Shown here piece after piece: positions 1,936 through 29,096 of a stretch of DNA of 64,000 bases; the first letter of the stretch is position 1, and every line of letters starts with the position of its first letter. Source of the DNA: Chloroflexota bacterium. GTDB lineage: Bacteria > Chloroflexota > Limnocylindria > QHBO01. Location of the stretch: NCBI GenBank assembly GCA_039933775.1, contig JBDTNK010000001.1, positions 5,938-69,937 of the forward strand, in the 5' to 3' direction. The translations under genes and the position numbers were made by a program. The notes under the pieces were generated by a model. That model did not search any database, was not told the origin of the DNA, and saw only the letters and a list, made by a program, of their open reading frames with translations.

Positions 1936-1974
1936 ACGCCGCGCGACCATGACATGAAGGAGTAGCAGCACACG

Positions 1975-12249: not shown

Positions 12250-12282
12250 CGATCCACCACCGCACTGGAGCACAATCCTCTG

Positions 12283-12948
12283 ATGACCGACACCGATACC
12301 GCGCCGCGATCCGGTGGTCCCACCGTCTCGACGACGACCGCGACCACCGCATCGGGCGAAACTATTCACCTTGGCGGTGGCGCGGGCACGCGCCACGACC
12401 GCGAGACGACCGGATTCACGGTCTGGTTCACCGGTCTCTCCGGCTCCGGCAAGAGCACGATCACCCACCTCATCGAAGCGGAACTTCGCCGCCGTGGCCA
12501 CAAGGTCGAGGTGCTCGACGGGGACGTCGTGCGCACCCACCTTTCGAAGGGCCTCGGCTTCAGCAAGGAAGATCGCGACACCAACATCCTTCGCATCGGA
12601 TGGGTCTGCGAAGTCCTGAGCCGGAACGACGTCGTCGCGATCGCGGCGGCGATCAGTCCGTACCGCGACATCCGGGACCAGCTCCGTCGCGACATCGGCC
12701 GCTTCGTCGAGGTCTATGTCGAGGCACCACTCGAGGTGCTCGCCGACCGTGACGTGAAGGGCCTGTACCGCAAGGCGATGGCCGGCGAGATCAAGGGCTT
12801 TACCGGCGTGGACGACCCGTACGAGGCGCCACTCAATCCGGAGGTCGTCTGCCACTCGGACGGCCGCGAAACGCCGGAGGAGAGTGCCGCGAAGGTGATT
12901 GCAAAGCTGGAGGAGCTCGGCTACTCGCAGCCGAACGAGACCCGCTGA
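12283..12948 (+). CDS. cysC: Adenylylsulfate (APS) kinase
   Basis: The P-loop is [12 protein letters not shown], and the rest is an APS-kinase-like body. Its stop overlaps the next gene as TGATG. Confidence 0.85.
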
Positions 12949-14270
12949 TGCGTCCGCGGCGGCGCGTCATCGTCGTCGCTCTCGACGGGCTTGGAATCGA
13001 CCTCTTTCGCGGAGCTCTGGCGCGCGGACACATTCCACATCTCGCAGCGCTGGCCGGACCTGGGGGGCCACGGGCGATTGCGACGCGGCCCCCGGCGAGC
13101 CCCCAGGCCGCGTGGACCACGTTCACGACGGCCTCGAATCCGGGGCGACACGGGATCTTCGGTCTCACGCATCCCGGTCGGCAGCTGCGTATTCGCATCG
13201 CCAGCGCCGACCACGTTCGGATGCCGACATTGTGGGACCGAGCAGCGACCGACGGACTCCGGTCGGTCGTCGTTGGCCTTCCCGGCACGTACCCGGCGCG
13301 CCGAATGTCGGGCTCAATGGTCGCCGGTTACGTCGTTCCCAACCCAGAGCGCCTGTGCTACCCGCGTGCGCTGTCCGCACGCGTCGCTGAGGCAGGGTAT
13401 AGGTCCGATATCGATGTGCGTACGGCGGCGAGCGATCCTGAGCGGTTTGCCGCGGAGCTGCTCACATCTGTCGAGCGCCGAATCGAGGTGATGCGACAAC
13501 TGCTGAAGCACGACCGCTGGTCGCTGGCAGTCCTTGCGTTTACCGAGCTTGATCGATGGGGTCACGCCTGGCGGCGGCGTGTCGCCGCCGGTGATCATGA
13601 CGCCCTGGTGGTCGGCGACTCGATCTTGTCATCGATCGATCGCTTCTTCGGCTTCTTGCGCGAGGCGTATGGAGCCGCCAAATTCCAGGTCCTGTCCGCC
13701 AATGGCATTGCCCCCGTGGACCATCTGCTCAACCTTGATGGATGGCTCAGAGATGCCGGCTACCTTCACCGGGAGGACGGCCAGCTCGGCGGCAGGACTG
13801 TTGCGTTCTCGATGGAAGCCGGCCGAATCTACATCCACGCGACGCGCATGTTCGCCGACGGGAGGCTCGGTGGCGGCTCGGTGTTGCCGTTGATGGACGA
13901 GATCGCTGAAGGACTGACGGCGCTGCGCTCGCCCGACGGCGCCCTCCCGTTACAGGCCGTCGTCCGCCGGCGTGATCTATACGACGGACCTCACGCACGC
14001 GTCGGCCCGCATCTCGTGGCCGTGCCTGCACCGGGGTGGGCGGTTGTCAGCTCTCGGAAGCTTCCCCTGGTCAGCAAAGCTGCGGATTTCGAGGGTGGTC
14101 ACCGACATGACCTGGCGTTCGCCGTCGGCGACGCCGCGGACGATGGCTCACCGGTGACCCTGGAAGACCTCGGCGCGACCGTCCTCGCGGATCTGGCGGT
14201 GTATGACGATGACGTGGATGGCACGGCTCTTCGTGCTGGTGGGGCCAAGGCGCAACGCAACTCACGATGA
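12948..14270 (+). CDS. Alkaline-phosphatase-superfamily protein (type I phosphodiesterase / nucleotide pyrophosphatase-like)
   Basis: The N-terminus VIVVALDGLGIDLF is typical of PF01663-like AlkP-core enzymes. The gene is 440 aa and translationally coupled to cysC. Confidence 0.55.
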   Translation: MRPRRRVIVVALDGLGIDLFRGALARGHIPHLAALAGPGGPRAIATRPPASPQAAWTTFTTASNPGRHGIFGLTHPGRQLRIRIASADHVRMPTLWDRAATDGLRSVVVGLPGTYPARRMSGSMVAGYVVPNPERLCYPRALSARVAEAGYRSDIDVRTAASDPERFAAELLTSVERRIEVMRQLLKHDRWSLAVLAFTELDRWGHAWRRRVAAGDHDALVVGDSILSSIDRFFGFLREAYGAAKFQVLSANGIAPVDHLLNLDGWLRDAGYLHREDGQLGGRTVAFSMEAGRIYIHATRMFADGRLGGGSVLPLMDEIAEGLTALRSPDGALPLQAVVRRRDLYDGPHARVGPHLVAVPAPGWAVVSSRKLPLVSKAADFEGGHRHDLAFAVGDAADDGSPVTLEDLGATVLADLAVYDDDVDGTALRAGGAKAQRNSR

Positions 14271-14422
14271 CCTGAGGTCGCTCGGTGCTTGAGCGCACCA
14301 TCGTGCCGCCGCGCGCTATTGCGCTGGCCGTACCCTTGCCTCAGGATCGCGACTAGTACTTATTACTCACTTATCACCCACTTATCGGCTAGATTCAGCC
14401 GGGTGGGGGACGCACGGGGCGA
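14270..14422 (+). promoter_or_regulatory. AT-rich intergenic region upstream of the priming transferase operon (putative promoter)
   Basis: The only markedly AT-rich stretch in the window is gactagtacttattactcacttatcacccacttatcggctag. It contains reiterated TTAT(C/T)AC-like words and precedes a long co-directional gene run. Confidence 0.3.
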
Positions 14423-14455
14423 GTGCCTTCGCCCCGAGGGGAGGCCCAGCGTTAC

Positions 14456-15178
14456 ATGGTCACCATCCGACGGCGTACCGTCGCATCGCTCGAAGTGCCA
14501 CGAGCGGTGCAGCCCCGAGCGCAGGCGCGGCCTCCGGCCGCGTTGACGTCTCGTCGAAAGCGAGCTTTCGATCTGATCGCGAGCGTCGCCATATTCGTCA
14601 TCATCTCGCCACTCTGGTTCTTGATCGCGCTCGCGATCAAGCTGAGCTCGCCTGGCCCTGTGCTGTTCCGCCAGGAGCGGATCGGTGTCGGTGGCCAGCC
14701 GTTTACGCTCTACAAGTTCCGCACGATGCACAACGGGGTCAGCGATGAGGTGCATCGGCGTTTCGTTACCGGGATGATTCTCGGCAGCGTCGAATCGACG
14801 GCAATCTCAGCGTATGACGGAGCCTTCAAGCTCGCCCGTGATGCTCGAGTGACGGTGGTTGGGCGCTGGCTGCGGCGGACCTCGCTCGACGAGCTGCCGC
14901 AGCTCCTCAACGTGATCGCGGGGGACATGTCGCTCGTCGGTCCTCGGCCGCCCCTCGCGTACGAGGTTGATCGGTATGAACCATGGCAGCACGAGCGACT
15001 GAGTGTGCTGCCCGGGATCACCGGGCTGTGGCAGGTCTCGGGACGCAACCGCCTCAGCTATCTGGACATGATCCGGCTGGACATTGCCTACGCGAGAGAC
15101 TGGACGTTCCGCCGCGATCTGCTCATTGCGATCAAGACGCCGTGGACGATGTTCGTCGATCGCGGGGGTGCTGCGTGA
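14456..15178 (+). CDS. Undecaprenyl-phosphate sugar-1-phosphate transferase (bacterial sugar transferase family, priming glycosyltransferase)
   Basis: The single N-terminal TM is AFDLIASVAIFVIISPLWFLIALAI. It also has RIGVGGQPFTLYKFRTM and the catalytic motif LDELPQLLNVIAGDMSLVGPRP, typical of WbaP C-terminal/PssY-type enzymes. Confidence 0.85.
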   Translation: MVTIRRRTVASLEVPRAVQPRAQARPPAALTSRRKRAFDLIASVAIFVIISPLWFLIALAIKLSSPGPVLFRQERIGVGGQPFTLYKFRTMHNGVSDEVHRRFVTGMILGSVESTAISAYDGAFKLARDARVTVVGRWLRRTSLDELPQLLNVIAGDMSLVGPRPPLAYEVDRYEPWQHERLSVLPGITGLWQVSGRNRLSYLDMIRLDIAYARDWTFRRDLLIAIKTPWTMFVDRGGAA

Positions 15179-16293
15179 TGGAGAAGCTTGGAATCGGCGT
15201 CATTGGATGCGGGTACTGGGGGCCAAACCTGATCCGCAACTTCGCCCGTCACGACGACGCGCATGTCGTCGCAATCTGCGACATGCAGATCGATCGGGCA
15301 TCGCGCGTCGCAGGCTGGTACGGCGTCTCGGCGGTAACCGACGATCCCGCGATGCTCATCAACAACCCTGAGGTGTCGCTCGTGGTGGTCGCGACGCCTG
15401 CCGGATCGCATTTCGGCCTTGCCAAGGCCGCCCTTGAGGCTGGCAAGCACGTTCTGATCATGAAGCCGATGACGACGCGCACGGACCATGCCGAGGAGCT
15501 GATCGAGCTCGCTCGAGCCCAGGGCGTGTTGCTCGCCGTCGACCACACCTTCGTCTACACGGCCGCTGTTCGGAAGATGCGAGAAATCGTGGTGGCCGGC
15601 GATCTGGGAGACGTCTTCTATCTTGACAGTGTCCGGATCAATCTCGGCGTCTTCCAGTCGGACGTAAACGTCATCTGGGATCTGGGCCCGCACGACATCA
15701 GCATCATCGACTACGTGCTCGGTGGTCGCCTGCCGAGCGAGGTGTCGGCGGTCACCGCGGCGCACGCGGGGAGCCGTCACGAGAACATCGCCTACCTGAC
15801 GATGCGCTACGGACCGAGCGTCCTGGCACACGTGCACGTGAATTGGCTCGCGCCGGCCAAGATCCGCCGAACGATCGTCGGTGGTTCGAAGCAGATGCTG
15901 GTCTACGACGACATGCAACCTTCAGAGAAGCTGCTCGTGTACGACCGAGGTGTGACGATCTCCCCTTGGGAGGATCCCGAGGAAATCTACAACCAGCTGG
16001 TGTCATATCGAACCGGCGATGTCACGGCTCCGCGCCTCGACGACCGTGAGGCGCTCGCGACCGAAGTCGACGAGGTGGTACGCGCGATCCGCGGAGGGCC
16101 GGCGCCTCTGAGCGACGCGGCGCTCGGGCTGCGGACGGTGCAGATCCTCGAAGCTGCTGAGCGGTCGGCACGCGATGGCTCCCGTCCCGTCACATTCGAC
16201 GGCGGTCGCACCCCACCGCTGGCGGCGACGACCGCGTTCGCTGTCGGAGGCGCACCGGTTCACTCACTGCGCGCCCCAGCGACCGGCGACTAG
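15178..16293 (+). CDS. Gfo/Idh/MocA-family NAD(P)-dependent sugar oxidoreductase
   Basis: The N-terminus has the Rossmann motif KLGIGVIGCGYWGPNLIRNF. The start overlaps the upstream stop as ATGA. The gene sits in a glycan locus, like WbpB/WlbA-type nucleotide-sugar dehydrogenases. Confidence 0.75.
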   Translation: MEKLGIGVIGCGYWGPNLIRNFARHDDAHVVAICDMQIDRASRVAGWYGVSAVTDDPAMLINNPEVSLVVVATPAGSHFGLAKAALEAGKHVLIMKPMTTRTDHAEELIELARAQGVLLAVDHTFVYTAAVRKMREIVVAGDLGDVFYLDSVRINLGVFQSDVNVIWDLGPHDISIIDYVLGGRLPSEVSAVTAAHAGSRHENIAYLTMRYGPSVLAHVHVNWLAPAKIRRTIVGGSKQMLVYDDMQPSEKLLVYDRGVTISPWEDPEEIYNQLVSYRTGDVTAPRLDDREALATEVDEVVRAIRGGPAPLSDAALGLRTVQILEAAERSARDGSRPVTFDGGRTPPLAATTAFAVGGAPVHSLRAPATGD

Positions 16294-16418
16294 CGGCCGT
16301 TGCGCCCGACGGCGCACGATGGGTCGGGCCTGAATGAGCAAGGCTCGGCCGATGGGTGCTGCGCCGGGCGGTTTCGACAGCGGTCGACTAGGATACGCCA
16401 ACAAACCTGAGGTATGCG

Positions 16419-17558
16419 ATGGAGCTGCGGTCTCTGCTGCGCCTGATCCTCCGCCATTGGTGGGTCATCATCCCGATTTTCATCATCACCGTCGGCTCGA
16501 CGGTCGTGCTGACGTTGAGCCAGCGCCCGATCTACCAGAGCACGACAACGCTGCTCGTCACACCGTCAACCGATTTGAGCGCCACGCAGCAGGAGATCAT
16601 CAACTCACTTCAGCTCCTGAGCCGCCAGAGTGAGATCGCAGCCACCTATGCGCTCGTGGCCTCGAGCGCCACTATTCGCCAAGCGGTCACCGACGAGCTC
16701 GGCATCACGCCGATTGACCGCCGCAACCAGCAGCTCGACCTGGACGCGCGGCTCCTTCCCGGGAGCACGGTCATCACGATCGATGTGCGGTCCACCGATG
16801 CGCAGCTCGCGACGGCCTACGCCTCTGCGGTCGGAGACGAGCTCAAAGACTTCGTCAGCAACCTAACCGAGACGTTCGATCTGTTGACCCTCGATCCGGC
16901 GAGTGTTCCCGGCGCTTCGATCGCGCCGAATGTGCCGCTCAATATCGCGCTCGGCGTCGCAGGCGGACTGGCGCTTGCCGTTGGGGCCGCGGTCGTACTA
17001 CACCTGCTCTCGCCCGCCCCGCGGCTTCGCCCTCGAATGGACATCATCGATCCGGAGACCTGGGCGTACAACTTCCCATTCTTTCTGTTCCGCCTTCGTC
17101 AGGAAATGAGCCGGACACGGCGTGTCGGAACGGCGACGTCGCTGGCGATCATCGACGTGAACCACCGGGAGTCGCTCGACTCCGCCTCGCCACATGGCCG
17201 GGCTGATGCCCTCGTGCGGGTCTCCATCCTGTTCGACACCCACCTGCGGCTCGAAGACACTGCAGCACGGCTCGATGACATGACATTCGCGCTGCTCCTG
17301 CCGGACACCACCGAACCAGATGCGGTCCGGATGGTCGAGGCGCTTCGAGCGCGGATCGCGAGCGCGGTGCTCAGCATCAGCGAGCACAAGGAGCCGATGC
17401 GTGCGAATCCTGCGGCGGGGGTTGTCTCGTATGCGGGCGACGCGATGAGCGAGCAGGAGCTGCTCGATCGTGCCCGCAAGGCGCTGCAGCGCGCCGAAAC
17501 GTCTCCCAGCGGCCGAACCGAGACGTTCACCACCGCGAATGCCGGACGCCCGGCCTGA
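16419..17558 (+). CDS. Wzz-like polysaccharide co-polymerase (chain-length determinant) with a C-terminal degenerate GGDEF-like domain
   Basis: The N-terminal TM WWVIIPIFIITVGSTVVLTL is followed by a Wzz-like periplasmic region and a second TM GVAGGLALAVGAAVVLHLL. The cytoplasmic tail carries GGDEF-fold landmarks: DDMTFALLLPDT in place of GGDEFAVLLP, a possible I-site RLED four residues upstream, and a terminal ELLDRARKALQRAE. Confidence 0.6.
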   Translation: MELRSLLRLILRHWWVIIPIFIITVGSTVVLTLSQRPIYQSTTTLLVTPSTDLSATQQEIINSLQLLSRQSEIAATYALVASSATIRQAVTDELGITPIDRRNQQLDLDARLLPGSTVITIDVRSTDAQLATAYASAVGDELKDFVSNLTETFDLLTLDPASVPGASIAPNVPLNIALGVAGGLALAVGAAVVLHLLSPAPRLRPRMDIIDPETWAYNFPFFLFRLRQEMSRTRRVGTATSLAIIDVNHRESLDSASPHGRADALVRVSILFDTHLRLEDTAARLDDMTFALLLPDTTEPDAVRMVEALRARIASAVLSISEHKEPMRANPAAGVVSYAGDAMSEQELLDRARKALQRAETSPSGRTETFTTANAGRPA

Positions 17559-19122
17559 CGCAGGGGCCGACGAGGGGATTCTCGACGCCGCGAAAGGCGG
17601 AGGGATCGCCTTCGCCGGACGCGTCTTCACCTGGACCGCACGGCTCGGCCTCGCCGTGCTGCTCGCCCGGCTGCTTGGAGCGGACGAGTATGGCCTCTAC
17701 AACCTGGCACTGACAGTGGCCACCGTCATGGCGAGCTTCCCGTCGCTCGGGCTCGACTCCGCGCTTGTGCGCTTCATGGCGGTGTACTCCTCTCGAGGGG
17801 ATTTAGGCCGGCTCCGCGGAAGCCTTCAGATCGGCATCGGGATCCCGCTCATACTGAGCGTGCTCGTGGGCATCGTCCTCTTCTTCGCAGCCGAGCTGAT
17901 TGCGACCGGGATCATGCATGACCCGCGGTTGACTCCACTGCTCCAGATCGCCAGCGTCCTGGTACCCGCCACCGTCCTCAACCGGCAGCTCGCGGCCGCA
18001 CTCCAGGGCCTCCGCAGGCTTGGGGACGCGGTGCGTGCCGAGCAGTTCGCCCAGCCGGCCTCGCGAGTGATCATGCTGCTTGCGATCGCGGCATTTGGCC
18101 TCACGGCGGCGTGGGCCGTCGCAGCGTCGGCGCTCGCGGCGCTCGTCGCAACCCTGCTGATGATCCTGTTGCTGAGCCGCGCCGCCGGAGCAATCCGCGG
18201 CGTGCTGGCCAGTAGGGAGACTCGCGCACTGACGAGCCATGCTGTGCCCGTCTTCTTCTCGAATGTCGTGAACACCTTTGGCGGGAACCTCCAGACGTTG
18301 TTCCTCGGCGCGATGAGCAGCGCCGCATCCGTCGGTGTCTTTGCCATCGCCAATCAGATCACGCTCGTCGGCTCGATGTTTCACCAGTCGGTGGCCGCAT
18401 CCTCGATGCCGGTCTTCGCCGAGTACGCCGATCGCGGCGATCGCTCAGGCAGCGAGCGGCTGTATCGGATCACCTCAAAGTGGACCTTCACGCTCAACCT
18501 GCCACTCTTCTGCCTGGTGCTTGTCTTTCCGGATGCGTTCCTCGCACTCTTTGGGCGCGAGTTCGAGGCCGGCTCAACCGCGCTGATCATCCTTGCCTGG
18601 GGCGCGCTCGCGAACGCGGCCACGGGGACGTCGGGCGCGATCCTCGATATGGCCGGTCATACGCGTGTCAAGTTCCTGAACTCCACACTGTCGCTCGGCC
18701 TGGCGATCGGCCTCAGCCTGATGCTCATTCCGCCGCTCGGCATCGTGGGAGCGGCGATCGCGGCGGTGGGCTCGGTGGCCCTGGTGAACCTGCTTCGGGT
18801 GCTCGAGGTCGCTCTACTGGTGCGGATCACGCCGTACGACGTGGGCTGGTTGAAGCCGATCCTGGCCGGCGCACTCGGCCTCGGCGCCGGGCTGCTGGCG
18901 GCGACGCTCGTCGGAGGGAGCGACACGGTTGCCGGCTTCGCCGCCGGCGCAATTGCACTGCTTGCCGTCTATGCCGCAGTGGTGTTCGCTCTCGGCATCA
19001 GCGACGACGACCGGATGGTCCTGGGCCGAGCCGGACGGAAGATCACACGCATCGGGCGCAAGCGCGGACGCCGGACAGGATCGGCCAAGCCGGTGCTCGA
19101 GTCGGACCGGCACGAGCGATGA
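17539..19122 (+). CDS. Polysaccharide flippase (Wzx / MOP-superfamily polysaccharide biosynthesis protein)
   Basis: Roughly 12 predicted TM helices. The N-terminal region has the typical LLGADEYGLYNLALTV motif. Confidence 0.75.
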   Translation: MPDARPDAGADEGILDAAKGGGIAFAGRVFTWTARLGLAVLLARLLGADEYGLYNLALTVATVMASFPSLGLDSALVRFMAVYSSRGDLGRLRGSLQIGIGIPLILSVLVGIVLFFAAELIATGIMHDPRLTPLLQIASVLVPATVLNRQLAAALQGLRRLGDAVRAEQFAQPASRVIMLLAIAAFGLTAAWAVAASALAALVATLLMILLLSRAAGAIRGVLASRETRALTSHAVPVFFSNVVNTFGGNLQTLFLGAMSSAASVGVFAIANQITLVGSMFHQSVAASSMPVFAEYADRGDRSGSERLYRITSKWTFTLNLPLFCLVLVFPDAFLALFGREFEAGSTALIILAWGALANAATGTSGAILDMAGHTRVKFLNSTLSLGLAIGLSLMLIPPLGIVGAAIAAVGSVALVNLLRVLEVALLVRITPYDVGWLKPILAGALGLGAGLLAATLVGGSDTVAGFAAGAIALLAVYAAVVFALGISDDDRMVLGRAGRKITRIGRKRGRRTGSAKPVLESDRHER

Positions 19123-20633
19123 GCTCCACGTCCGTCGGCGCCGAGGCGCCGCTCGCCACGACGCTGGCACTCTTTGCGCGCCTCGAGGAGCTGGGCGTTC
19201 GTTACTGCCATTGGAAGAGCACGCCGTCGCTGGGGACCGCCCTGGCCGGACGGACTGACCTCGACCTGCTCGTCGAGCGGGAAGATGCCGATCGCTTCGC
19301 GGAGGCGGCTCGCGGCCTCGGCTTCAAGCCGTTCATCTCACATGCGAGCCGACGCTTTCCGGCAGTCGAGGACCTTCTCGGCTACGACGAGGAGACCGGG
19401 CGCCTCATCCACCTGCACGTGTATTACCAGCTCATCCTGGGTGAGCACTACATCAAGAACCACCGCCTGCCATTCGAGCGGGCGCTCATCGGAAGCAGTG
19501 TGCTGCGCGATCGCGTTCGGGTGCCGCCACCCGAACTCGAAGTGGCAATCCTGGCGTATCGCACGCTGCTGAAGTATCGGGATACCGATGCACTGAAGGA
19601 TCAGCTGGGCCTCGGGCGCCGTGGCGGGATTCCCCGCGAGGCGCTCGCCGAGCTGCGAGCGCTGATCGCAAGCACCACGCCGGATGCTGTCGGTCGGGCC
19701 ATCGAGGCCGAGCTCCCCGGCCTTGCGCCTGGTCCGGTCGTCGGTCTGATCGAGCTCGTGGGAGACAACGCGCGCGACGCCGTGGCGCTCCTTCACCTGC
19801 GCCGCGAAGCACGCACCGCGCTGCGCGCGTATGAACGAGTGCCGGCAGGTACGGCCTGGTGGCGGTACGTGCGCGCTCGAGCATCGGGCGTGTGGCCCTT
19901 CCGCATCGTCACGCGCAGTGCCGGTCGGCGTGCCGTAAAGCGCAAGTCGCCGCGCGCAGGTGGCCTCGTCGTCGCGGTCATCGGGTCCGATGGGGCCGGT
20001 AAGTCGACCGCGATAGAGCACATCGTCGACTGGCTTGGCTGGCGCCTGAACGTATCGGTGCAGTACCTGGGCTCTTCGCAGCCATCGCGGACGACGGCCA
20101 GCGTGAAGCGGGTCGCCAAGCTCGGCCGCGCGCTTGCCCGGCGCCTCCCAGGCGGTGCCGATGAAGCGCCGTCGGGCGGCGTGGTCGGGGTGCTCCTAGC
20201 GCTGCGGCACCTCGCCGACGCCCGCGACCGAGAGCGCCGCGCCCGGGTTGCCCACAGGCTCGCATCGCAGGGCGTTCTCGTCCTGCTGGATCGGTACCCT
20301 CTGCCGGGCGTGCTCGTTGCTGGTCGGCCGCTGGACGGTCCGCGAATCCGGCTCACGCTCGCTGCCGGCTCCAGACTCCTGCGCATGCTGGCCGAACGGG
20401 AGGAGCGCATCTACCGACGGCTGCCGCGGCCGGATCATCTGCTCGTGCTGCGGGTCTCACCTGAAGTCGCGCGCGTACGACGGCCTGACCATGTGGCCAA
20501 AGACCTCGCGGCACGGACGGCAGCGCTCGATCGCCTCGAGGGAATCACGATCCCGATGACGATGATCGACGCCGATCAGCCGCTGGAGCGGGTCCAGGCC
20601 GACGTGCGGGCGGCGCTCTGGCGCCTCCTGTGA
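19119..20633 (+). CDS. Two-domain protein: N-terminal minimal nucleotidyltransferase-like region plus C-terminal thymidylate-kinase-like P-loop domain
   Basis: The N-terminus has GTALAGRTDLDLLVERED, an hG[GS]...D-h-D-hhV NTase-like motif. The C-terminus has the P-loop VIGSDGAGKST and a downstream LLDRYP (DRY/H) motif, as in dTMP kinases. The start is ATGA-coupled to the flippase. Confidence 0.45.
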   Translation: MSSTSVGAEAPLATTLALFARLEELGVRYCHWKSTPSLGTALAGRTDLDLLVEREDADRFAEAARGLGFKPFISHASRRFPAVEDLLGYDEETGRLIHLHVYYQLILGEHYIKNHRLPFERALIGSSVLRDRVRVPPPELEVAILAYRTLLKYRDTDALKDQLGLGRRGGIPREALAELRALIASTTPDAVGRAIEAELPGLAPGPVVGLIELVGDNARDAVALLHLRREARTALRAYERVPAGTAWWRYVRARASGVWPFRIVTRSAGRRAVKRKSPRAGGLVVAVIGSDGAGKSTAIEHIVDWLGWRLNVSVQYLGSSQPSRTTASVKRVAKLGRALARRLPGGADEAPSGGVVGVLLALRHLADARDRERRARVAHRLASQGVLVLLDRYPLPGVLVAGRPLDGPRIRLTLAAGSRLLRMLAEREERIYRRLPRPDHLLVLRVSPEVARVRRPDHVAKDLAARTAALDRLEGITIPMTMIDADQPLERVQADVRAALWRLL

Positions 20634-22405
20634 GGACGATCGAGTTCGCTGGCGCCGTCGGCAGCGGCAAGAGCACACTTGCGCCGGAGCTTGTCCGGCT
20701 GCTGCGGGAGGCGGGAATTGACGCGGTCGGGCAAACGGACGCGCTCGCCGGACTCGTGAGCCGCCGGGTCGGGCTCGCCGTCGATGCGCCCCACGGTGCT
20801 GCTTTCGCCGCAACCCATCCTCGTCTCATGCTCCTCGTCGCCCGGGTGTTGGCGCGCGCCGCGACCGATCGATCACATCGCCGCCGCATCGCGGGTCTCG
20901 TACTGCGGCTTGGTGCGCGGCGGCAGTTCCTGGAGTCCACGCTCGCGCCCGACAGGACCGTCGTGATCGACGAGGGTTTCGTGCAGCGCGCCGTCAACGT
21001 CTTCGCCTGGGCCCCTGGACCGCTGCCGGTGCGCGACCTAGCGCGCTACTTCAGACTGGCCCCCATCGGGGACGTGGTCGTGATGGTCCAGGTTGATGGC
21101 CGTGTCGCCCGAGGGCGCGCGCGAGCTCGAGGGCTGCCGCAACGGGTCGCAGCGAAGCCAGTTGAAGAGGCCGAGCGATTCTTGGCAAGAGCGGAGCAGG
21201 TGGTTGATGCGGCCGGCCGAGTGCTCCAGTCGCTCGGCGTGCCGACGATCGTGGTGAACAATGACGGTACGCGCGAGGGGGCGGTCGACGCGCTGCGCGG
21301 ACACCTGCCGCAGCTGGCGGGCGCAGCGCAGCCGCCGCGCATGAAGTTTGGCCCGCTCGCATTGTCCCGCCCGCGCCGGCGGGGCCGGGCGGCCGTCACT
21401 CCAACGGGACTCGAGGCCGCGATGGACGCGCTCGGGATTGGTACCTGGCGGCTGCTGCGTCCGCTTGGCCGGGCCACCGGCCGCAGCGGGTCTGCGCTCG
21501 TCGAGACGCCCGCCGGGCCGCTCGTGCTCAAGCGCTATAAGGCCAGCGTGCCGATCGATCAGGTACGCGTCGAGCACGAGATTCTCCGCGAGCTCGAGGC
21601 GCTTCAGTTTCCGGCACCCCGGCTCCGAGCGAGCTCGGACGGCACAACGATCATCGATGCCAGCGGGGCGATGTTCGCCGCGTTCGGCTACCTCGACGGC
21701 TATCGACGCTCAGACGACGTGCTCCGGCCGGGGTGGTTGCAGCCGGCCACGGCGCGACTCCACGGTTCGGCGCTTGGCGCGCTGCACGCTGCGCTCGCGG
21801 GCTTCGTCCCCGAAACAACGAGCCCGCACGGCTTGGACCGCAACGCGCCGGGCCGCCGAGCTCGCGATCTGCAGTGGCACGAGGACCTCCTCGATGAGGT
21901 CGAGCGCAGTCCACGCGCACCTCGCCTTCGGGAGGAGCTCGCCGAGCTGCGCCACGTCCTCCCCGAGAGCGACGCGCGGGTGTCGGCCGCGGAGCTGTCG
22001 GCAGGAGTGGTGCATGGCGACTTCGGGCCATACAACGTTCTTATCCGGGATGGCGCGCCGCTCTTCATCGTCGACTACGAGCTTGCGCGACTGGACTGGC
22101 GCGTCGTGGATCTGGCAGCGGCACTCCCGCGATACCTCGGACGCCGGCGCGGCCGCGACGCGGAGCGACGCCTGAGTCGATTCCTGGATGGGTATCGGTC
22201 CAAGGTGGGCCTTTTGCCGCAGGAGCTGCGAGCGCTGCCGGCGGTGTTGGCCTTCCTTAGCCTGCGCCGGGCTGCGGTTCTGCTGGGCCGCTGGATCGAT
22301 CAGCCTGGAGACGCAGCGCCCTGGGAGGTCATCGAAAAACTGATGCTCGCGCGCACCATCGCTGCAGGTGATCACGTAATCGCACGCGTGGCGCGCACAT
22401 TCTGA
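20630..22405 (+). CDS. Two-domain protein: N-terminal P-loop NTPase plus C-terminal aminoglycoside/choline-kinase-like (APH) phosphotransferase
   Basis: The N-terminus has the P-loop FAGAVGSGKSTLA. The C-terminus has the Brenner/APH catalytic motif VVHGDFGPYNVLI followed by FIVDYE. A GTG start at 20630 overlaps the upstream stop as GTGA. Confidence 0.5.
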   Translation: MRTIEFAGAVGSGKSTLAPELVRLLREAGIDAVGQTDALAGLVSRRVGLAVDAPHGAAFAATHPRLMLLVARVLARAATDRSHRRRIAGLVLRLGARRQFLESTLAPDRTVVIDEGFVQRAVNVFAWAPGPLPVRDLARYFRLAPIGDVVVMVQVDGRVARGRARARGLPQRVAAKPVEEAERFLARAEQVVDAAGRVLQSLGVPTIVVNNDGTREGAVDALRGHLPQLAGAAQPPRMKFGPLALSRPRRRGRAAVTPTGLEAAMDALGIGTWRLLRPLGRATGRSGSALVETPAGPLVLKRYKASVPIDQVRVEHEILRELEALQFPAPRLRASSDGTTIIDASGAMFAAFGYLDGYRRSDDVLRPGWLQPATARLHGSALGALHAALAGFVPETTSPHGLDRNAPGRRARDLQWHEDLLDEVERSPRAPRLREELAELRHVLPESDARVSAAELSAGVVHGDFGPYNVLIRDGAPLFIVDYELARLDWRVVDLAAALPRYLGRRRGRDAERRLSRFLDGYRSKVGLLPQELRALPAVLAFLSLRRAAVLLGRWIDQPGDAAPWEVIEKLMLARTIAAGDHVIARVARTF

Positions 22406-22483: not shown

Positions 22484-24739
22484 GTGCCCGCCGTGCCGAA
22501 AATCTTGAAGGTCGTCGCTGTTCTGGCGGTGACGTTCGCGCTCATTGCCCCGGGCCTCGTGGTGGCCAAGAACGACAAGGCGACCGCGCCGCAGCAGGCG
22601 TTTGTCCGATTGTTGCGTCACATCGAGGTGGCTGAGTTCGGGATCGCGCATCCTGCCGGGCTGGCGTATGTCCCGGCCACGCGCGCGCTGCTCGTCATCG
22701 ACGCGTCCGGCGCGGCGAGCCATCTGGTTGGCGTCAGCGAGGACGACCTTGGGCCCGTTGCGCTGCCTGCCGTGCCAGATTCGGCCGCGGCGGTGACGTT
22801 CGACGCGGCCACGAGCGCCCTCGTCGTCATCGACGGCAGCGCCGTCGTGAACGAGGTCGCGGCACCAAACGGCCGCCCATCTGGTCCTCCGACGCAGGGC
22901 CGCGCCGTCGCTCCCCAGACCGTGACCGGCACGGCAATAAGTGGAGGTGAGCTGCTCGTGGGCGACGGCAGCGGCTTCGTCGCGCTTGCGCCGGACGCTT
23001 CGCGCGGGTCGAGGCGTGTCGACATGAGCCGCCTGGGAGAGCCGCTTGTTGGCATCGCCGTCGATCCGGAGAGCGGACATCTCTACACCTTGGGCAGCAG
23101 GTCGCGGACGCTCTTCGAGCTCGACACGACCGGAACCGTGCTGTCCACGCGCGATCTCTCGACGCTCGGGCTGAGCGAGCCCCAGGCCATTGTGGCCGCG
23201 CCCAGCGCCGACACGACGGACGATGCGACGGCGATCAGCCTATTCGTCGCCGATGCCGGCCCAAGCGGCGGCACGGGGACGGTTGTCGAGCTGGGTCTAC
23301 AGGCACCGCAGATTTCCCCACAGCTGGCCCTCGCGGCGGCGAGCAACGCGACCCTCGTCCGCACGATCGACACATCCGGATGGCCAAGCCCGGATCCTTC
23401 GGGCATCGCCTACAACACGGCGAGTAATCGGCTCATGGTCGTCGACGGTGAGATCGACGAGATGCAGATCTATTCCGGGTTCAATGGCTACGAGTCGACG
23501 CTCACCGGTACGCTCCTGCGGACGTTCGACACGCTCGGCTGGCGGTCCACCGGACCGTGTGGTGGCCAATCAGGTCTCCAGACCTGCCTGAACAAGGAAC
23601 CGGTCGGCGTCGCGATCAACCCGACGAATGGCCACGTCTTCGTTTCGAACGACTCGAAGAAGACGGTCTGGGAGGTCACTCCCGGTGGTGACGGCGTCGT
23701 AGGCGGCAGCGATGACGTGCTGCGCTCGTTCCGGCTCGATACTCTCGGCGTCGGCGATCCCGAAGGCCTCGGGATCGGCGGCGGACGGCTCTGGGTCGCC
23801 GACGGCACGAACCGCGAGATCTGGTCGCTCGCCCCGGGTAACGACGGGCTCTTCGGGACGCCCGACGACCCCATCGCCCACTTCGACACTGATTCGCTCG
23901 GTGAGCCGGATCCGGAGGGCGTCGACTACGATTCCGCGACCGGACACCTGTGGGTCGTGAGTAACGACACCCAGCAGACACTGCTCGAGGTCACGACTTC
24001 GGGTTCGCCGGTGCAGGTCGTGGACATCTCGGCGTCTCAGGCACGCTCGCCAGGCGGCGTGGCGGTTGGACCAGCGAGCGGCGGTTCGGGTCGCAGCGTC
24101 TACGTCGCGGATCGCGGTGTCGACAACAATGACAATCCGAACGAAAATGACGGACGCATCTACGAGCTGGCGATCGGCTCCGCGCCAGATCCTACGCCGA
24201 CACCGGTGCCCACCCCAACGCCCGTCCCCACCGCCACGCCGATTCCGACGGCGACGCCGAGCGCGACACCATCGGCGACACCGGTTCCGCCGGGCACCAA
24301 CCTGGTGGTCAACGGCGACTTCGAGGCCGACGTCAATGGGGACGGCCCGGACAACTGGTCGACGCACGAGCATTTCACTCGGTCGACCACGGCCGCTCAC
24401 GCAGGGACGTACGGTGGCTTGCACAGCGCGACAGATGGGAGCCGATACAACATCCAGCAGGATGTGCCGGTCGTGGGTGGCAACGCATACGACTTCAGCG
24501 GCTGGGTCAACATCCCGAACGCCAATGGCACGACGCGGTTTATCCTGAAGGTCCAATGGCGTAGCAATCGGAATCTTGGCGTGACTGAGATCGCGAAGTT
24601 CACGACCGCGACCAGCGGGTGGGTCCAGGTCAATGATTCGGTAACGGCGCCTGCGGGTGCCACGGCAGCTCGACTGATCATGACGCTGCGGAACTTCAAC
24701 GGGACCGTCTGGGTCGACGATTTTCGCCTGCAGCGCTGA
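22484..24739 (+). CDS. Secreted protein with a beta-propeller-like repeat region, a Pro/Thr linker and a C-terminal CBM4/9-like carbohydrate-binding module
   Basis: A signal-peptide-like N-terminus (KILKVVAVLAVTFALIAPGLVVA) leads into repeated DPSG/DPEG...Y/W blades. A PT-rich linker PDPTPTPVPTPTPVPTATPIPTATPSATP follows. The C-terminal domain begins NGDFEADVNG...W, as in CBM_4_9 modules. Confidence 0.55.
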   Translation: MPAVPKILKVVAVLAVTFALIAPGLVVAKNDKATAPQQAFVRLLRHIEVAEFGIAHPAGLAYVPATRALLVIDASGAASHLVGVSEDDLGPVALPAVPDSAAAVTFDAATSALVVIDGSAVVNEVAAPNGRPSGPPTQGRAVAPQTVTGTAISGGELLVGDGSGFVALAPDASRGSRRVDMSRLGEPLVGIAVDPESGHLYTLGSRSRTLFELDTTGTVLSTRDLSTLGLSEPQAIVAAPSADTTDDATAISLFVADAGPSGGTGTVVELGLQAPQISPQLALAAASNATLVRTIDTSGWPSPDPSGIAYNTASNRLMVVDGEIDEMQIYSGFNGYESTLTGTLLRTFDTLGWRSTGPCGGQSGLQTCLNKEPVGVAINPTNGHVFVSNDSKKTVWEVTPGGDGVVGGSDDVLRSFRLDTLGVGDPEGLGIGGGRLWVADGTNREIWSLAPGNDGLFGTPDDPIAHFDTDSLGEPDPEGVDYDSATGHLWVVSNDTQQTLLEVTTSGSPVQVVDISASQARSPGGVAVGPASGGSGRSVYVADRGVDNNDNPNENDGRIYELAIGSAPDPTPTPVPTPTPVPTATPIPTATPSATPSATPVPPGTNLVVNGDFEADVNGDGPDNWSTHEHFTRSTTAAHAGTYGGLHSATDGSRYNIQQDVPVVGGNAYDFSGWVNIPNANGTTRFILKVQWRSNRNLGVTEIAKFTTATSGWVQVNDSVTAPAGATAARLIMTLRNFNGTVWVDDFRLQR

Positions 24740-24760: not shown

Positions 24761-26221
24761 ATGACCTCGCGGGCTGAACCGGTCAACCGGCCGCCGATCG
24801 CTGCCCTTGCACTGGGCCGGCCGTTCGACGCGCGCTGGAGCGGTGTCGCGACCGTGGTCGTTGGCATCCTGGCTGGACTGGCGATCGCCTATTTGATCGC
24901 AACCGGCAATGGCCAGATGGCCATCGGAGCCGCCCTCGCGGTGCCCATCGCCGCGCTGGTGGTCGGCGATCCATTCATCGGGGTGATCCTCTGGGTCCTC
25001 ACCGTCCCGTATTTCAGCGGCCTTTCCGCCGAGACCGGGCCGGTGATCTGGGCCGTCCATCGGTTCGGCATCCCTGCGGTGATCGTGCTGACCGCGGTTC
25101 ACAGCCGCCTGGGATGGCGTCGCTGGGGCCTCCGCGTCGGGTGGGTCGATCTGTTTCTTGCGGCATTCATCGCGATCGGGCTAGTGAACATCGTGTTCCT
25201 GGCACCAAACACACAGCGCATGATCGCGTCGTTCTACGACAAGATGATTGTCCCGATCGCGCTCTTCTGGCTGATCCGAGCGATGGCACCTCGCCGCCGG
25301 GAGCTGCGCATGCTGGTCGGGGCGGGGCTGATTACGCTGGTGACCCAGTCGACCATCGGCTTGCTGTCCTGGGTGGCCCCGAGCGTGCTTCCCTCAGCTT
25401 GGCTCGGGCGCGCCGGAGAGCGCACGACCGGCACGCTCGGCGGCCCTGCTCCGTTCACGATCACGCTCGTCCTTTTCGGGATCATCGCGGTCCACGCAGC
25501 GGCCCAGTCGCCCTCGGTGCGGCATCGGGCGGTCATGATCGGTGCCACCCTGCTCGCGGCGGTTGCGATCTTCCTGTCGCTCTCTCGTGGGAGCTGGTTA
25601 GGCGCGGGCATCGCCTTCACCGGGGTCGCATTGATCCACCGCCGTCTCGTGGGGCTCATGGCAGTCATCGCAGTCTTGACGATCGTAGCGCTGAGCGCCG
25701 GACCGCTCGCCGAGCAGGTGGCCTTCGCCCAGGAGCGGATAGGTGACGACGACACGGTGGAGTCGCGAATTGTCACGAACGATGCATCGCTGCGCATGAT
25801 CGAGGCACAGCCGATCATCGGGTTTGGCTTCGGAAACTTCGAGCGATACGACGAGTCGTTCAAACGGCGCGTGGGCGACATCCCGCTGAAGTTGGGTGGG
25901 AGTTCCCACAATACCTACCTGGCAATGCTCGCGGAGCAGGGCATTCCCGCCACCACGCTCTACCTCGCCGTGCCGGTCGTCCTCCTCGCGACGACGTTCC
26001 TTCGCTGGCGGGACCTGCCGCCTTCTGGCCTGGGCAGCCGCGTGTTCGTGGCAGCCCTGTGGCTCGCGATCATCGACATGTTCGTGGTCCAGAATTTCCT
26101 CGAGATGATCCACTCATCGTACTGGGCGACTTCCCTCTGGTGGCTGACGCTCGGCCTCATCGCATCGGTTCTCGACCGCGCCGACGAGCGACGGCGGTTC
26201 GATACCGCGGTGGACCGATGA
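24761..26221 (+). CDS. O-antigen ligase/polymerase-family membrane protein (Wzy-like)
   Basis: About 10-12 TM helices. It carries the Wzy_C signature region FLSLSRGSWLGAGIAFTGV with a large loop. The stop overlaps the next gene as ATGA. Confidence 0.7.
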   Translation: MTSRAEPVNRPPIAALALGRPFDARWSGVATVVVGILAGLAIAYLIATGNGQMAIGAALAVPIAALVVGDPFIGVILWVLTVPYFSGLSAETGPVIWAVHRFGIPAVIVLTAVHSRLGWRRWGLRVGWVDLFLAAFIAIGLVNIVFLAPNTQRMIASFYDKMIVPIALFWLIRAMAPRRRELRMLVGAGLITLVTQSTIGLLSWVAPSVLPSAWLGRAGERTTGTLGGPAPFTITLVLFGIIAVHAAAQSPSVRHRAVMIGATLLAAVAIFLSLSRGSWLGAGIAFTGVALIHRRLVGLMAVIAVLTIVALSAGPLAEQVAFAQERIGDDDTVESRIVTNDASLRMIEAQPIIGFGFGNFERYDESFKRRVGDIPLKLGGSSHNTYLAMLAEQGIPATTLYLAVPVVLLATTFLRWRDLPPSGLGSRVFVAALWLAIIDMFVVQNFLEMIHSSYWATSLWWLTLGLIASVLDRADERRRFDTAVDR

Positions 26222-27183
26222 TCACCCCCACCGCTGAACCGCTGCCGGTGCCGCCACCAGAGCGGATCGACTCGATCTTCGTCGTCGGTCTCAGCCGGAG
26301 CGGCACGACGCTGCTGCGCAACATCCTGAACCGCCACGACGCCATCGCCATCGCGCCCGAGAACCACTTTCTTGGGCATCTCATCGCCAGTGAGGGCGTG
26401 CGGCACAAGCTCCGCCGCTTCGGCGACTTATCCGACGACGCACGGCTTCGCAGCATGGTCGACTTTTTTTACGACGGCGGTCTGAGCCGCGCCAGCCGGC
26501 TGCGTGACCCGAGCCGCTTCTGGGCGTGGCTCGCCAAGCGCGTCCCTCGCGAAGAGCTCTTCGCGCGGCTGGTAGCGACAGATCGCAGCGAGCGAGCGAT
26601 CTTCGGGGCCGTGCTGGATGCCTATGCGGTGCGGAAGGGTAAGCGGATTCGCGGCGAGAAGACGCCGGCCCATCTGCGCTACGTGCCGACGCTGCTTGAC
26701 TGGTATCCCGGAGCCCGCGTGATTCACATGATGCGCGACCCCCGTGCGATCTTCGTGTCGGAGCTGCGGCGGCGACGAGCGACCGGCGGCGGCAAACCCT
26801 ATCGGTTCCTGGCGGCTGTACCGCCGCTGCTTGCCGCCTTCGTGCTGATCGAGACGACCGTCATCTGGGTCGAGGGGGCGTGGCGCGCGGGGCGCTACGG
26901 GCGCACGTTCCGTGGTCGGTATCGGATGCTTCGGTTCGAGGATCTCGTCCGCCGTCCCGAGGTCGAGCTGCGCCAAGTCTGCGCATGGCTCGGCCTCGAC
27001 TTCCAGGAAGAGATGCTCGAACAGCACGTGGTCAGCGTCGGTGCGCGGCTTGGCGAGCAGGGCATCGACAGCGAGGCGGCGACGCGCTGGCAGAGCAACA
27101 TCCCCGCGTGGGCCGATTGGTGGTTCCGCACCGCCCTCCGTGGCCGCCTGCGAACTTTCGGATACGAGACGGCAGACCGATGA
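26218..27183 (+). CDS. Sulfotransferase (paralog 1 of tandem array)
   Basis: The 5'-PSB loop is IFVVGLSRSGTTLL and the 3'-PB region is IHMMRDPRAIFVS. ATGA-coupled on both sides. Confidence 0.75.
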   Translation: MITPTAEPLPVPPPERIDSIFVVGLSRSGTTLLRNILNRHDAIAIAPENHFLGHLIASEGVRHKLRRFGDLSDDARLRSMVDFFYDGGLSRASRLRDPSRFWAWLAKRVPREELFARLVATDRSERAIFGAVLDAYAVRKGKRIRGEKTPAHLRYVPTLLDWYPGARVIHMMRDPRAIFVSELRRRRATGGGKPYRFLAAVPPLLAAFVLIETTVIWVEGAWRAGRYGRTFRGRYRMLRFEDLVRRPEVELRQVCAWLGLDFQEEMLEQHVVSVGARLGEQGIDSEAATRWQSNIPAWADWWFRTALRGRLRTFGYETADR

Positions 27184-29092: not shown

Positions 29093-29096
29093 ACCG

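Follow-up and report, generated by a model that had tools for sequence, protein, structure and literature searches.

Two translationally coupled genes that follow the Wzx flippase gene of a Chloroflexota bacterium, here called A and B, belong to a protein family whose probable role is to attach a phosphate- or nucleotide-linked group while a sugar polymer is being assembled. Gene A encodes a minimal nucleotidyltransferase (NTase) domain (A_N) fused to a thymidylate kinase (TMK)-like P-loop domain (A_C), while gene B encodes a P-loop domain paralogous to A_C (B_N) fused to a kinase of the APH fold (B_C), all with intact catalytic motifs. The pair of A and B_N recurs across phyla, tightly coupled genetically, and occasionally also physically, to Wzx and a glycosyltransferase (GT). 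All four folds are familiar. Their combination, conservation and attachment to the Wzx step are undescribed in the literature that we searched, and literature searches on the A/B architecture in connection with polysaccharides or sulfation yielded nothing specific.

Organization of the locus

The window, a stretch of 64,000 nucleotides, contains a sulfation locus, whose genes include those for ATP sulfurylase, APS kinase, a DHH phosphatase and eight sulfotransferases (Table 1). Its genes run in the order sulfotransferase, DHH/DHHA1 (-), ATP sulfurylase, APS kinase, Phosphodiest, Bac_transf, GFO/IDH/MocA and Wzz-GGDEF, followed by Wzx, A, B, NHL/CBM, Wzy_C, seven further sulfotransferases and two GT4. 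At the Wzx/gene A junction (GCGATGAGC), the A ATG at 19119 overlaps the end of the Wzx reading frame at 19122 in an ATGA, and at the gene A/gene B junction (CTGTGAGG) the B GTG at 20630 overlaps the end of A at 20633 in a GTGA. The original prediction had described both couplings directly after the flippase, with exact coordinates, and its placement of the pair between Wzx and Wzy functions also stands, with Wzx upstream and Wzy_C downstream beyond one secreted NHL/CBM gene. The sulfation locus, the paralogy of A_C and B_N, and the identity of the conserved pair as A + B_N rather than A + APH were not part of that prediction.

Homologues starting at the same alignment column back the start codons of both genes, and GC content by codon position is of the coding type (0.78/0.51/0.79 for A and 0.79/0.53/0.79 for B). 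The products are 100% identical to the NCBI entries ‘MAG: hypothetical protein ABI534_00130 [Chloroflexota bacterium]’ (A) and ‘MAG: phosphotransferase [Chloroflexota bacterium]’ (B). Their AlphaFold models are confident (pLDDT 87.9 for A and 82.7 for B), with no signal peptide or transmembrane segment evident in either model.

Table 1. Positions of genes, domains and motifs in the window
Feature	Position	Strand	Description
Sulfated-polysaccharide locus around A/B	8887-36376	.	
Canonical APS kinase	12283-12948		201.6 bits
Wzx flippase (Polysacc_synt / Polysacc_synt_3)	17470-19122	+	Context; translationally coupled to gene A
Gene A, 504 aa	19119-20633	+	Minimal nucleotidyltransferase + helical domain fused to thymidylate-kinase-like P-loop kinase
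A_N, aa 1-268	19119-19922	+	Pol-beta-type NTase core (about aa 13-135) + helical bundle (aa 138-265)
NTase signature KS-x12-DLD (K33 S34 ... D47 x D49)	19215-19265	+	KSTPSLGTALAGRTDLD, alignment
A_C, aa 276-504	19944-20630	+	Thymidylate-kinase-like P-loop domain, roughly 60-aa helical insertion (aa 324-383)
A_C Walker A GSDGAGKST	19983-20009	+	D291, acidic, four positions before Lys, invariant
A_C DRY motif, R392 invariant	20289-20297	+	TMK-type motif binding acceptor phosphate
Gene B, 591 aa	20630-22405	+	TMK/dNK-like P-loop domain fused to APH-fold kinase
B_N, aa 1-235	20630-21334	+	P-loop domain paralogous to A_C
B_N Walker A GAVGSGKST	20651-20677	+	
B_N DEG replacing DRY	20969-20977	+	
B_N lid R163-x3-R167	21116-21139	+	
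B_C, aa 258-591	21401-22402	+	APH / choline-kinase-fold small-molecule kinase
B_C HGDFGPYN loop, intact	22013-22036	+	
B_C DYE	22073-22081	+	
Secreted NHL / SdiA-regulated beta-propeller + CBM_4_9 protein	22484-24739	+	Context; recurrent neighbour of A-family genes
Wzy_C protein	24761-26221		Downstream of A/B; one secreted NHL/CBM gene intervening

Domains of genes A and B

The signature of A_N reads K33-S34...G44-x-T46-D47-x-D49, and residues K33, D47, D49, D90, H98, E120 and E141 are invariant across phyla. The domain combines the [GS]-x9-13-Dx[DE] pattern of Pol-beta-type minimal NTases with a further carboxylate and the NTase fold. Its nearest structural neighbour in the fold comparison is ANT(2'') (4xje), and ANT(2'') and LnuA are the nearest characterised NTases; a PDB sequence search with A_N matched no solved structure. 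Judged by sequence profiles, A_N appears to be a remote relative of PF14907 (NTP_transf_5), which Pfam matched in 8 of 40 A-family members (best E-value 1.8e-6) and for which three listed homologues of A carry a precomputed match; gene A itself has no PF14907 match at E<=1 in the Pfam search. An identity as a LicD/fukutin phosphotransferase is not supported, the LicD-type NTase fold not being the closest neighbour.

A_C contains both the P-loop GxDGxGK[ST]T and the DR[YHF] motif of TMKs, with D291, K295 and R392 invariant in 40 sequences, together with an invariant DGPRI motif specific to the family. An acidic residue four positions before the P-loop Lys is a feature of TMK signatures. Thymidylate_kin was matched by 31 of the 40 members in Pfam. 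Gene A itself reaches no Pfam threshold for an NTase or TMK-like domain and scores 14.3 bits against PF02223 (cut-off 27), 13.1 against TIGR00041 (83.25) and 17.3 against PRK07933 (193).

The motifs of B_N, GAVGSGKST and DEG with the P-loop Asp absent, are not those of TMKs, and the domain has no TMK match in Pfam or NCBIfam. By fold and profile together, thymidylate kinase is closest to both P-loop domains, which share the TMK fold, and A_C and B_N are paralogues. The alternative in the original prediction, that the P-loops might be APS-kinase- or zeta-toxin-like, is not supported, and the canonical APS kinase is encoded elsewhere in the locus. Neither Pfam score nor fold neighbour assigns them to APS kinase (PF01583), and Zeta_toxin gave no match, with AAA_33 reaching 19.1 bits against a cut-off of 27 for B. 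The BY-kinases (Wzc/CapB) were also rejected, as A and B lack any AAA_31, CbiA or ParA match in Pfam.

B_C is a member of the APH/choline kinase family (PF01636, 76.8 bits against a cut-off of 23.2) with the HGDxxxxN and DxE motifs. Residues K301, E315, H462, G463, D464, N469, D482 and E484 are invariant across homologues, and by analogy K301 and E315 would have the roles of the ATP-binding Lys and the Glu of APH kinases. NahK is closest in fold, and the best PDB sequence match of B is the homoserine kinase 2ppq (1.9e-9). Against homoserine kinase models, gene B scores 25.2 bits for TIGR00938 (thrB_alt; cut-off 255.9) and 40.6 for PRK05231 (271).

The original prediction had read A as an NTase-like region plus a TMK-like P-loop and B as a P-loop plus an APH domain with an intact HGDxxxxN loop. 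These architecture calls are borne out: all quoted motifs are present and invariant across homologues in the alignments, the NTase and P-loop motifs hold in the fold comparison as well, and for A the profile matches among 40 relatives agree.

Distribution and genomic context of the family

The A family is large and uncharacterised, with 1,634 clusters of 50% identity at E<=1e-30 in at least seven phylum-level groups, and many phyla carry it in their Wzx/Wzy glycan loci. A B_N-like gene lies directly beside A in about 20 of 25 non-redundant loci; these belong to Chloroflexota, Actinomycetota, Acidobacteriota, Gemmatimonadota, a deltaproteobacterial MAG, Methylococcales and Eisenbacteria. In most other loci B_N is a stand-alone gene of 230-280 aa adjoining A, and most of the loci with A + B_N have no APH domain. 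The evolutionarily conserved core is A + B_N, rather than A + APH, and it is the Chloroflexota-type sulfation loci that add the APH domain to this core. One locus (L020) has B_N and the APH domain as separate neighbouring genes directly 3' of A, which identifies B as a fusion of two functionally linked partners. A word-index search with B found only 11 relatives, so the B family is under-reported, and the B-like proteins of L001/L002 and L004 were found solely through their context. Apparent N-terminal ‘extensions’ of A in four high-GC loci (L006, L013, L014 and L016) were dismissed as start-codon artefacts of the mechanical ORF rule.

The order Wzx-A-B is kept in relatives at 47-72% identity, and Wzx-A is conserved in L001/L002, L004 and L025. 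In one homologue (P0274) Wzx and A are fused, with Polysacc_synt_3 matched at 2.7e-76 and the A profile over residues 557-1036, and another (P0233) is a GT2::A fusion; each comes from one metagenomic contig and could be a frameshift artefact, because the two genes normally overlap. Glycan-assembly genes are present in every neighbour-annotated A locus with two exceptions: L007, where A lies with only an NHL/CBM gene between ftsY and ffh and no glycan-assembly genes were called nearby, and a 4.6-kb contig on which the homologue P0185 was sampled without informative neighbours.

Proposed role and alternative explanations

A phosphate-linked decoration added around the flipping step, the role put forward in the original prediction, is still the most plausible reading, with indirect support from the conserved Wzx-A coupling, the Wzx::A and GT2::A fusions and the PsmK/PsmN precedent described below. 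A and B would be soluble cytoplasmic tailoring enzymes acting at the flippase step of a Wzx/Wzy pathway that makes a sulfated polysaccharide. We tentatively propose, with somewhat less than even confidence, that they form a flippase-associated kinase-to-nucleotidyltransferase relay that installs the phosphate-linked group. A sugar hydroxyl, most likely on the undecaprenyl-PP-linked repeat unit, would first be phosphorylated by the APH-fold domain of B and/or the TMK-derived B_N, which has DEG where TMK has DRY. A_C, which in D291 (P-loop) and R392 (DRY) retains the features typical of TMKs for an acceptor in which a phosphate neighbours a sugar hydroxyl, may then handle that phosphate or a nucleotide. 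A_N, with its invariant Lys and carboxylates, could finally cap or extend the phosphate using an NTP-type donor, so that the unit would carry a phosphodiester- or pyrophosphate-linked substituent by the time Wzx exports it. A_C and B_N, paralogues from a dimeric enzyme family, probably pair together.

Both P-loops derive from nucleotide kinases, and nucleotide handling fits them at least as well as glycan phosphorylation does. We also count against the relay the locus without nearby glycan-assembly genes (L007), the single-contig nature of the fusions and the scores of gene A below Pfam thresholds.

In a bolder form, which we regard as doubtful, A + B_N would be a previously unrecognised flippase-coupled glycan-tailoring machine. 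Its two TMK-derived kinases and its Pol-beta nucleotidyltransferase, joined in sulfation loci by the APH add-on, would furnish the lipid-linked repeat unit with a group attached through a pyrophosphate or a nucleotide. Such chemistry is not known from bacterial polysaccharides, and the machine would be widespread in soil phyla, hidden behind the annotations ‘thymidylate kinase’ and ‘hypothetical protein’.

The main rival, which we consider somewhat unlikely, is that the module supplies the transferases of the locus with a nucleotide-activated donor, which it makes or regenerates. The APH domain would make a sugar-1-phosphate (or alcohol-phosphate), both TMK-like domains would rephosphorylate the NMP and NDP that the phosphoglycosyl transferase and GTs release, and the NTase would convert NTP and X-phosphate to NDP-X, following the kinase + nucleotidyltransferase logic of HldE, LicA/LicC, NadR and PAPS synthase. 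The TMK ancestry of both P-loops favours this, as does the retention in A_C of the P-loop Asp and DRY Arg that bind the nucleotide 3'-OH and phosphate in TMKs, and a GT2::A fusion would suit donor channelling. However, enzymes that make NDP-sugars differ in fold from Pol-beta-type minimal NTases, none of which makes NDP-sugars to our knowledge. Moreover, most A + B_N loci do without the APH domain, no dedicated extra transferase family co-varies with A + B_N (generic GT4s alone recur), and a precursor-supply enzyme fused to a flippase would be odd. In a phosphonate survey, ‘thymidylate kinase’ and PF14907 are reported to flank PEP mutase, an arrangement that suggests phosph(on)ate activation and would favour donor supply; its supplement contains nothing on the TMK + PF14907 neighbourhood.

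It is unlikely that A + B_N instead senses ATP or a nucleotide and controls Wzx flipping or chain assembly while leaving the glycan unmodified, for example by nucleotidylation or phosphorylation of a machinery protein. Protein modification is a known activity of minimal NTases such as MNT and GlnE, the coupling to Wzx is tight with an occasional fusion, and the adjacent Wzz of Chloroflexota-type loci bears a cytoplasmic GGDEF-type domain instead of a BY-kinase. Yet complete Wzc BY-kinases stand beside A + B_N in L012 and L006, so that A + B_N does not replace them, all four enzyme domains keep full catalytic residue sets, and the TMK-type acceptor motifs point to small phosphate-bearing substrates.

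More improbable still is that the nucleotide kinases and NTase serve the eight sulfotransferases by recycling or reshaping PAP, APS or PAPS, possibly from PAP through 3'-phospho-ADP and 3'-phospho-ATP to PAPS. Sulfotransferases occur within 10 kb in 13 of the 25 loci, PAPS genes in several, and the APH add-on is confined to sulfation loci; PAPS synthase likewise combines an NTase with a P-loop kinase. We marked PAP-to-PAPS recycling down because the locus already has its own ATP sulfurylase, APS kinase and a DHH/DHHA1 (NrnA-type) candidate PAP phosphatase, and because about half of the A + B_N loci (for example L012, L017, L010 and L027) have no sulfotransferase within reach. In addition, the invariant P-loop Asp of A_C would sit against the 3'-phosphate.

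That A and B are here by chance, as the dTMP kinase and a type-II homoserine kinase of the cell, is highly improbable: the JGI auto-annotation of A-family proteins as ‘thymidylate kinase’ (others are called ‘hypothetical protein’) and the 2ppq match of B favour it, but scores fall far below the equivalog cut-offs (13-17 against 83-193 bits and 25-41 against 256-271), both proteins are two-domain fusions, and the synteny inside glycan loci holds from phylum to phylum. It is just as improbable that a MenT/AbiEii-type toxin or anti-phage module merely lies inside the locus, given a PADLOC match limited to a 15-bit P-loop similarity to mad3, no antitoxin-like partner gene, translational coupling within a biosynthetic operon, and fusions to Wzx and GT2.

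If A and B do install a phosphate- or nucleotide-linked group, this would be a new tailoring step in Wzx/Wzy polysaccharide biosynthesis. It would account for part of the still little-known chemistry of sulfated polysaccharides in bacteria other than cyanobacteria, and give a functional handle on PF14907 nucleotidyltransferases, which are also found in lasso-peptide and phosphonate clusters. The cultured carriers Blastococcus sp. TBT05-19 and Modestobacter sp. I12A-02662 make the question experimentally testable.

Comparison with known systems

In contrast to thymidylate kinases, A_C and B_N reach none of the cut-offs of the family, are each joined to another catalytic domain and lie in glycan loci; A_C has an insertion of roughly 60 aa and DGPRI, and B_N has DEG and lacks the P-loop Asp. 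B_C is 12-21% identical to NahK, type-II homoserine kinase and choline kinase LicA, all without the N-terminal TMK-like domain of B. A_N resembles ANT(2'')-Ia, LnuA and MenT, and apparently also PF14907, in having a Pol-beta NTase core with S-x12-DxD and additional invariant carboxylates ahead of a helical domain, and the ANT and Lnu enzymes nucleotidylate sugar-type hydroxyls; A_N is only 12-14% identical to ANT(2'')-Ia, LnuA and MenT, and is fused to a kinase.

WbdD (the O9a chain terminator) and the eukaryotic glycan kinases FAM20B and POMK have the protein-kinase fold and place phosphate on a sugar of a glycan that is still growing or lipid-linked, which serves as a checkpoint or a cap; fukutin and FKRP, transferases of the NTase fold, then extend what POMK has made. 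Any homology with A/B would be at the level of fold class; these enzymes work in ABC-transporter-dependent O-antigen or Golgi/ER pathways and have no P-loop kinase partner. A setting resembling ours by description is the wps-1 Wzx/Wzy cluster of Actinoplanes missouriensis, which has two sulfotransferases and a protein-kinase-like gene, wpsI, and is associated with a putative sulfated EPS; deletion of wpsI has the same phenotype as deletion of the whole cluster, and neither an A-like nor a B_N-like gene is reported there (PMC13390465).

In the pseudomycoidin cluster, the kinase PsmK places a phosphate on the lasso peptide, and PsmN, an NTase of an uncharacterised family modelled on ANT(2''), needs its DxD motif to add a hexose onto that phosphate (PMC6993621). 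The substrate there is a peptide Ser, the kinase is HPr-kinase-like rather than TMK- or APH-like, and the cluster has neither the fusion nor glycan machinery. PsmN and A_N share ANT(2'') as nearest structural neighbour, and the order of events proposed for A/B would be the same, with a kinase phosphorylating a hydroxyl and a minimal NTase then adding a group onto the phosphate.

The A/B pair and its sulfated-polysaccharide locus

The existence and placement of the A/B pair, including its coordinates, agree fully with the original prediction. The ATG of gene A overlaps the end of the Wzx reading frame (junction GCGATGAGC) and gene B begins with a GTG inside the end of gene A (junction CTGTGAGG), with both starts falling in the same alignment columns as those of their homologues. 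GC content by codon position is coding-like for gene A (0.78/0.51/0.79) and gene B (0.79/0.53/0.79). Each protein is 100% identical to a Chloroflexota MAG entry on a 118-kb contig, where A is named 'hypothetical protein' and B 'phosphotransferase'.

A and B lie in a Wzx/Wzy polysaccharide locus with sulfation equipment. Of its eight sulfotransferase genes, seven are of the Sulfotransfer_1/3 type and one is Sulfotransfer_2. Bacterial sulfated EPS has been described in the literature as essentially cyanobacterial; this heavily sulfated-polysaccharide locus belongs to a Chloroflexota MAG. The DHH/DHHA1 protein could be a PAP phosphatase. The phosphodiesterase gene lies directly 3' of the APS kinase gene with overlapping stop and start codons, an order also found in two other homologous loci (L004 and L025), and a phosphodiesterase homologue occurs in L005; candidate roles are hydrolysis of PAP, PAPS or NDP-sugars, or phospho-transfer. 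In the Wzz protein, the Wzz domain (aa 2-94) is followed by a cytoplasmic GGDEF-type domain (PF00990, 2.5e-14) without a BY-kinase. This domain appears degenerate, since the GG[DE]EF position reads RLDDMTF by eye, and could act as a receptor instead of a cyclase. The Wzz-GGDEF gene is also located 5' of Wzx in L001/L002, L004 and L025. Shortly downstream of the polysaccharide locus is a CWB2 protein with a weak pectate-lyase-like region.

Coordinates of features in the window and in homologous loci
Source	Feature	Position	Strand	Details
Window	Sulfotransferase	8887-9861		
Window	DHH/DHHA1	9836-10966	-	
Window	ATP sulfurylase	11008-12249		
Window	APS kinase	12283-12948		
Window	Type-I phosphodiesterase / nucleotide pyrophosphatase family protein	12948-14270	+	PF01663, 1.1e-25
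Window	Bac_transf	14423-15178		
Window	GFO/IDH/MocA	15178-16293		
Window	Wzz fused to GGDEF-type domain	16419-17558	+	
Window	Wzx	17470-19122		
Window	Gene A	19119-20633		504 aa
Window	Gene B	20630-22405		591 aa
Window	Secreted NHL/SdiA-regulated/CBM_4_9 protein	22484-24739	+	recurring NHL protein
Window	Wzy_C	24761-26221		
Window	Seven further sulfotransferases	26224-32712		
Window	Two GT4 glycosyltransferases	32833-34047 and 35327-36376		
Window	CWB2 protein	37819-40074	+	751 aa; three cell-wall-binding repeats, 6.9e-49
L003	Recurring NHL protein	13374-15740		
L007	Recurring NHL protein	7808-9883		
L010	Recurring NHL protein	12203-18048		
L003	Protein 5' of A	8988-10004		338 aa; weak Pkinase match, 0.0034
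L003	Asparagine-synthase-like protein 3' of A	11521-13359		612 aa; GATase_7, 1.4e-6
L026	Wzx::A (P0274)	157-3321		1054 aa
L028	GT2::A (P0233)	993-3173		726 aa
L019	Domain-shuffling site, B_N::A_C fusion	9977-11194	-	405 aa
L022	Domain-shuffling site	9680-11476		
L023	Domain-shuffling site	354-2006		
L017	Domain-shuffling site	8153-9517	-	
L012	Domain-shuffling site	17706-19133		

Domains and conserved residues

Together the two proteins contain four catalytic-looking domains: a Pol-beta-type nucleotidyltransferase (NTase) with a helical domain (A_N) and a thymidylate kinase (TMK)-like P-loop domain (A_C) in A, and a second P-loop domain (B_N) and an APH-fold kinase (B_C) in B. Searched against Pfam and NCBIfam, the gene A product of the window matched nothing above threshold, with P-loop/TMK matches sub-threshold only. 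Among 40 aligned homologues of A (39-77% identity), 31 matched the Pfam model Thymidylate_kin (best 1.4e-7) and eight matched NTP_transf_5 (PF14907; best 1.8e-6), while the family profile retrieved thymidylate kinases from the PDB at about 1.6e-5. The alignments show K33-S34-x12-D47-x-D49, D90, H98, E120 and E141 of A_N to be invariant across phyla. In A_C, G289-x-D291-G-x-G-K295-S-T, D391-R392-Y and the A family-specific motif D406-G-P-R-I are likewise invariant among the aligned sequences, and the pattern in both domains is consistent with active enzymes. Thymidylate kinases characteristically use a P-loop Asp and a DRY Arg for the sugar hydroxyl and phosphate of the acceptor, and A_C keeps both residues. 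The closest characterised structural neighbours of A_N are ANT(2'') and LnuA, which nucleotidylate sugar-type hydroxyls.

The C-terminal half of B scores 76.8 bits against PF01636 (cut-off 23.2; 2.8e-21), and its HGDFGPYN, DYE, K301 and E315 are invariant among aligned homologues; judged by sequence, B_C is a bona fide APH-family domain. A_C and B_N are paralogues: hhalign pairs them with a probability of 96.8% (E 2.9e-10) and places DEGFV of B_N opposite DRYPL of A_C.

Distribution, partners and fusions of the A family

Gene A belongs to a large family that is uncharacterised and mis-annotated. Our profile search of 1.84 billion representatives returned 5680 matches at E<=1e-3 and 1634 at E<=1e-30, nearly all full-length (480-530 aa). 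In close relatives (47-72% identity) the gene order Bac_transf-(GFO)-Wzz/GGDEF-Wzx-A-B-sulfotransferases is conserved. Among the matches listed in the GTDB genome scan, distant members (27-37% identity) are carried by Actinomycetota, Acidobacteriota, Gemmatimonadota, a deltaproteobacterial MAG, Methylococcales and Eisenbacteria; cultured carriers among the matches listed are the actinomycetotal Blastococcus sp. TBT05-19, with locus L010, and Modestobacter sp. I12A-02662, with locus L015.

Profile searches of 25 non-redundant loci, a small neighbourhood sample with several short contigs, found a stand-alone B_N-like gene (230-280 aa, with Walker A, hhhDEG and RxxxR) in about 20, mostly a few bases from A, sulfotransferases within 10 kb in 13, and an APH domain in only six, all of them Chloroflexota-type sulfation loci. 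The conserved core is A plus B_N, and APH is an add-on of sulfation loci. In L020, two separate adjoining genes come directly after A, one for B_N (270 aa) and one for the APH domain (376 aa); in L005, A is followed by an APH-only protein. The Chloroflexi MAG locus L003 has A without an APH gene.

Where annotated, the neighbours of A are glycan-assembly genes: Wza, Wzc, Wzy and a further PF14907 protein in L012; Wzy and Wzx in L017; GT4, Wzx and NHL/PKD proteins in L010; Wzc, GT4 and GNAT in L006; and GTs with an ABC exporter in L027. The exception is L007, outside a glycan locus, with the order ftsY - NHL/CBM - A - ffh. A secreted NHL/SdiA-regulated beta-propeller with CBM_4_9 or PKD repeatedly adjoins A-family genes, and its recurrence even in L007 suggests a functional tie between A and this extracellular protein.

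Three composite proteins, each seen on a single metagenomic contig, were found among the top 150 A representatives: Wzx::A, GT2::A and a tandem A::A (P0132). The first two both have a B_N-like gene next to or 3' of them. A is coupled genetically to Wzx and a GT, and physically too in at least one contig; the fusions could be frameshift artefacts of normally overlapping genes. Rearranged domains also occur as two tandem A_C-only genes in Sphingomonas and a 454-aa A_N-only paralogue adjoining full A in Methylococcales, while the L012 locus encodes a 475-aa PF14907 protein separately from its A.

Proposed function

The A/B module would be cytoplasmic and work at the membrane, on the lipid-linked repeat unit or a donor for that unit, with kinase steps first and a nucleotidyl-type transfer after them. 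Tentatively, our preferred reading is a tailoring relay from kinase to NTase, with a phosphate-linked substituent as its outcome, based on PsmK/PsmN, the chemistry of ANT(2'') and LnuA, wpsI, and the pairing seen in a phosphonate survey. The main rival, in our view rather unlikely, is that the module makes or regenerates a nucleotide-activated donor; this agrees well with the descent of both P-loops from TMK and with the resemblance of the APH-domain fold to NahK. Regulation of Wzx is improbable and PAP/PAPS handling slightly more so, while housekeeping enzymes and a toxin or defence role both deserve very little credence. The pair itself is confirmed, and the role given to it in the original prediction, a phosphate-linked decoration suggested by its place between the Wzx and Wzy functions, is supported in part. 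The alternative of APS-kinase P-loops finds no support in the fold ranking and is unnecessary because the locus is already equipped for sulfation, with a separate APS kinase.

This domain combination is undescribed in the literature searched, and it occurs in a defined biosynthetic setting. For the tailoring relay, parallels come from other systems. The wpsI gene, whose product resembles protein kinases, is indispensable to a putative Actinoplanes cluster for sulfated EPS (PMC13390465). In the phosphonate survey, a 'thymidylate kinase' and PF14907 flank PEP mutase, which suggests that this pairing handles phosph(on)ate groups in other settings. PsmN of pseudomycoidin biosynthesis, which resembles ANT(2'') and belongs to an uncharacterised NTase family, depends on its DxD motif to add hexose onto a kinase-installed phosphate (PMC6993621), and PsmK/PsmN is the nearest experimental precedent for the proposed kinase-then-NTase order in A/B.
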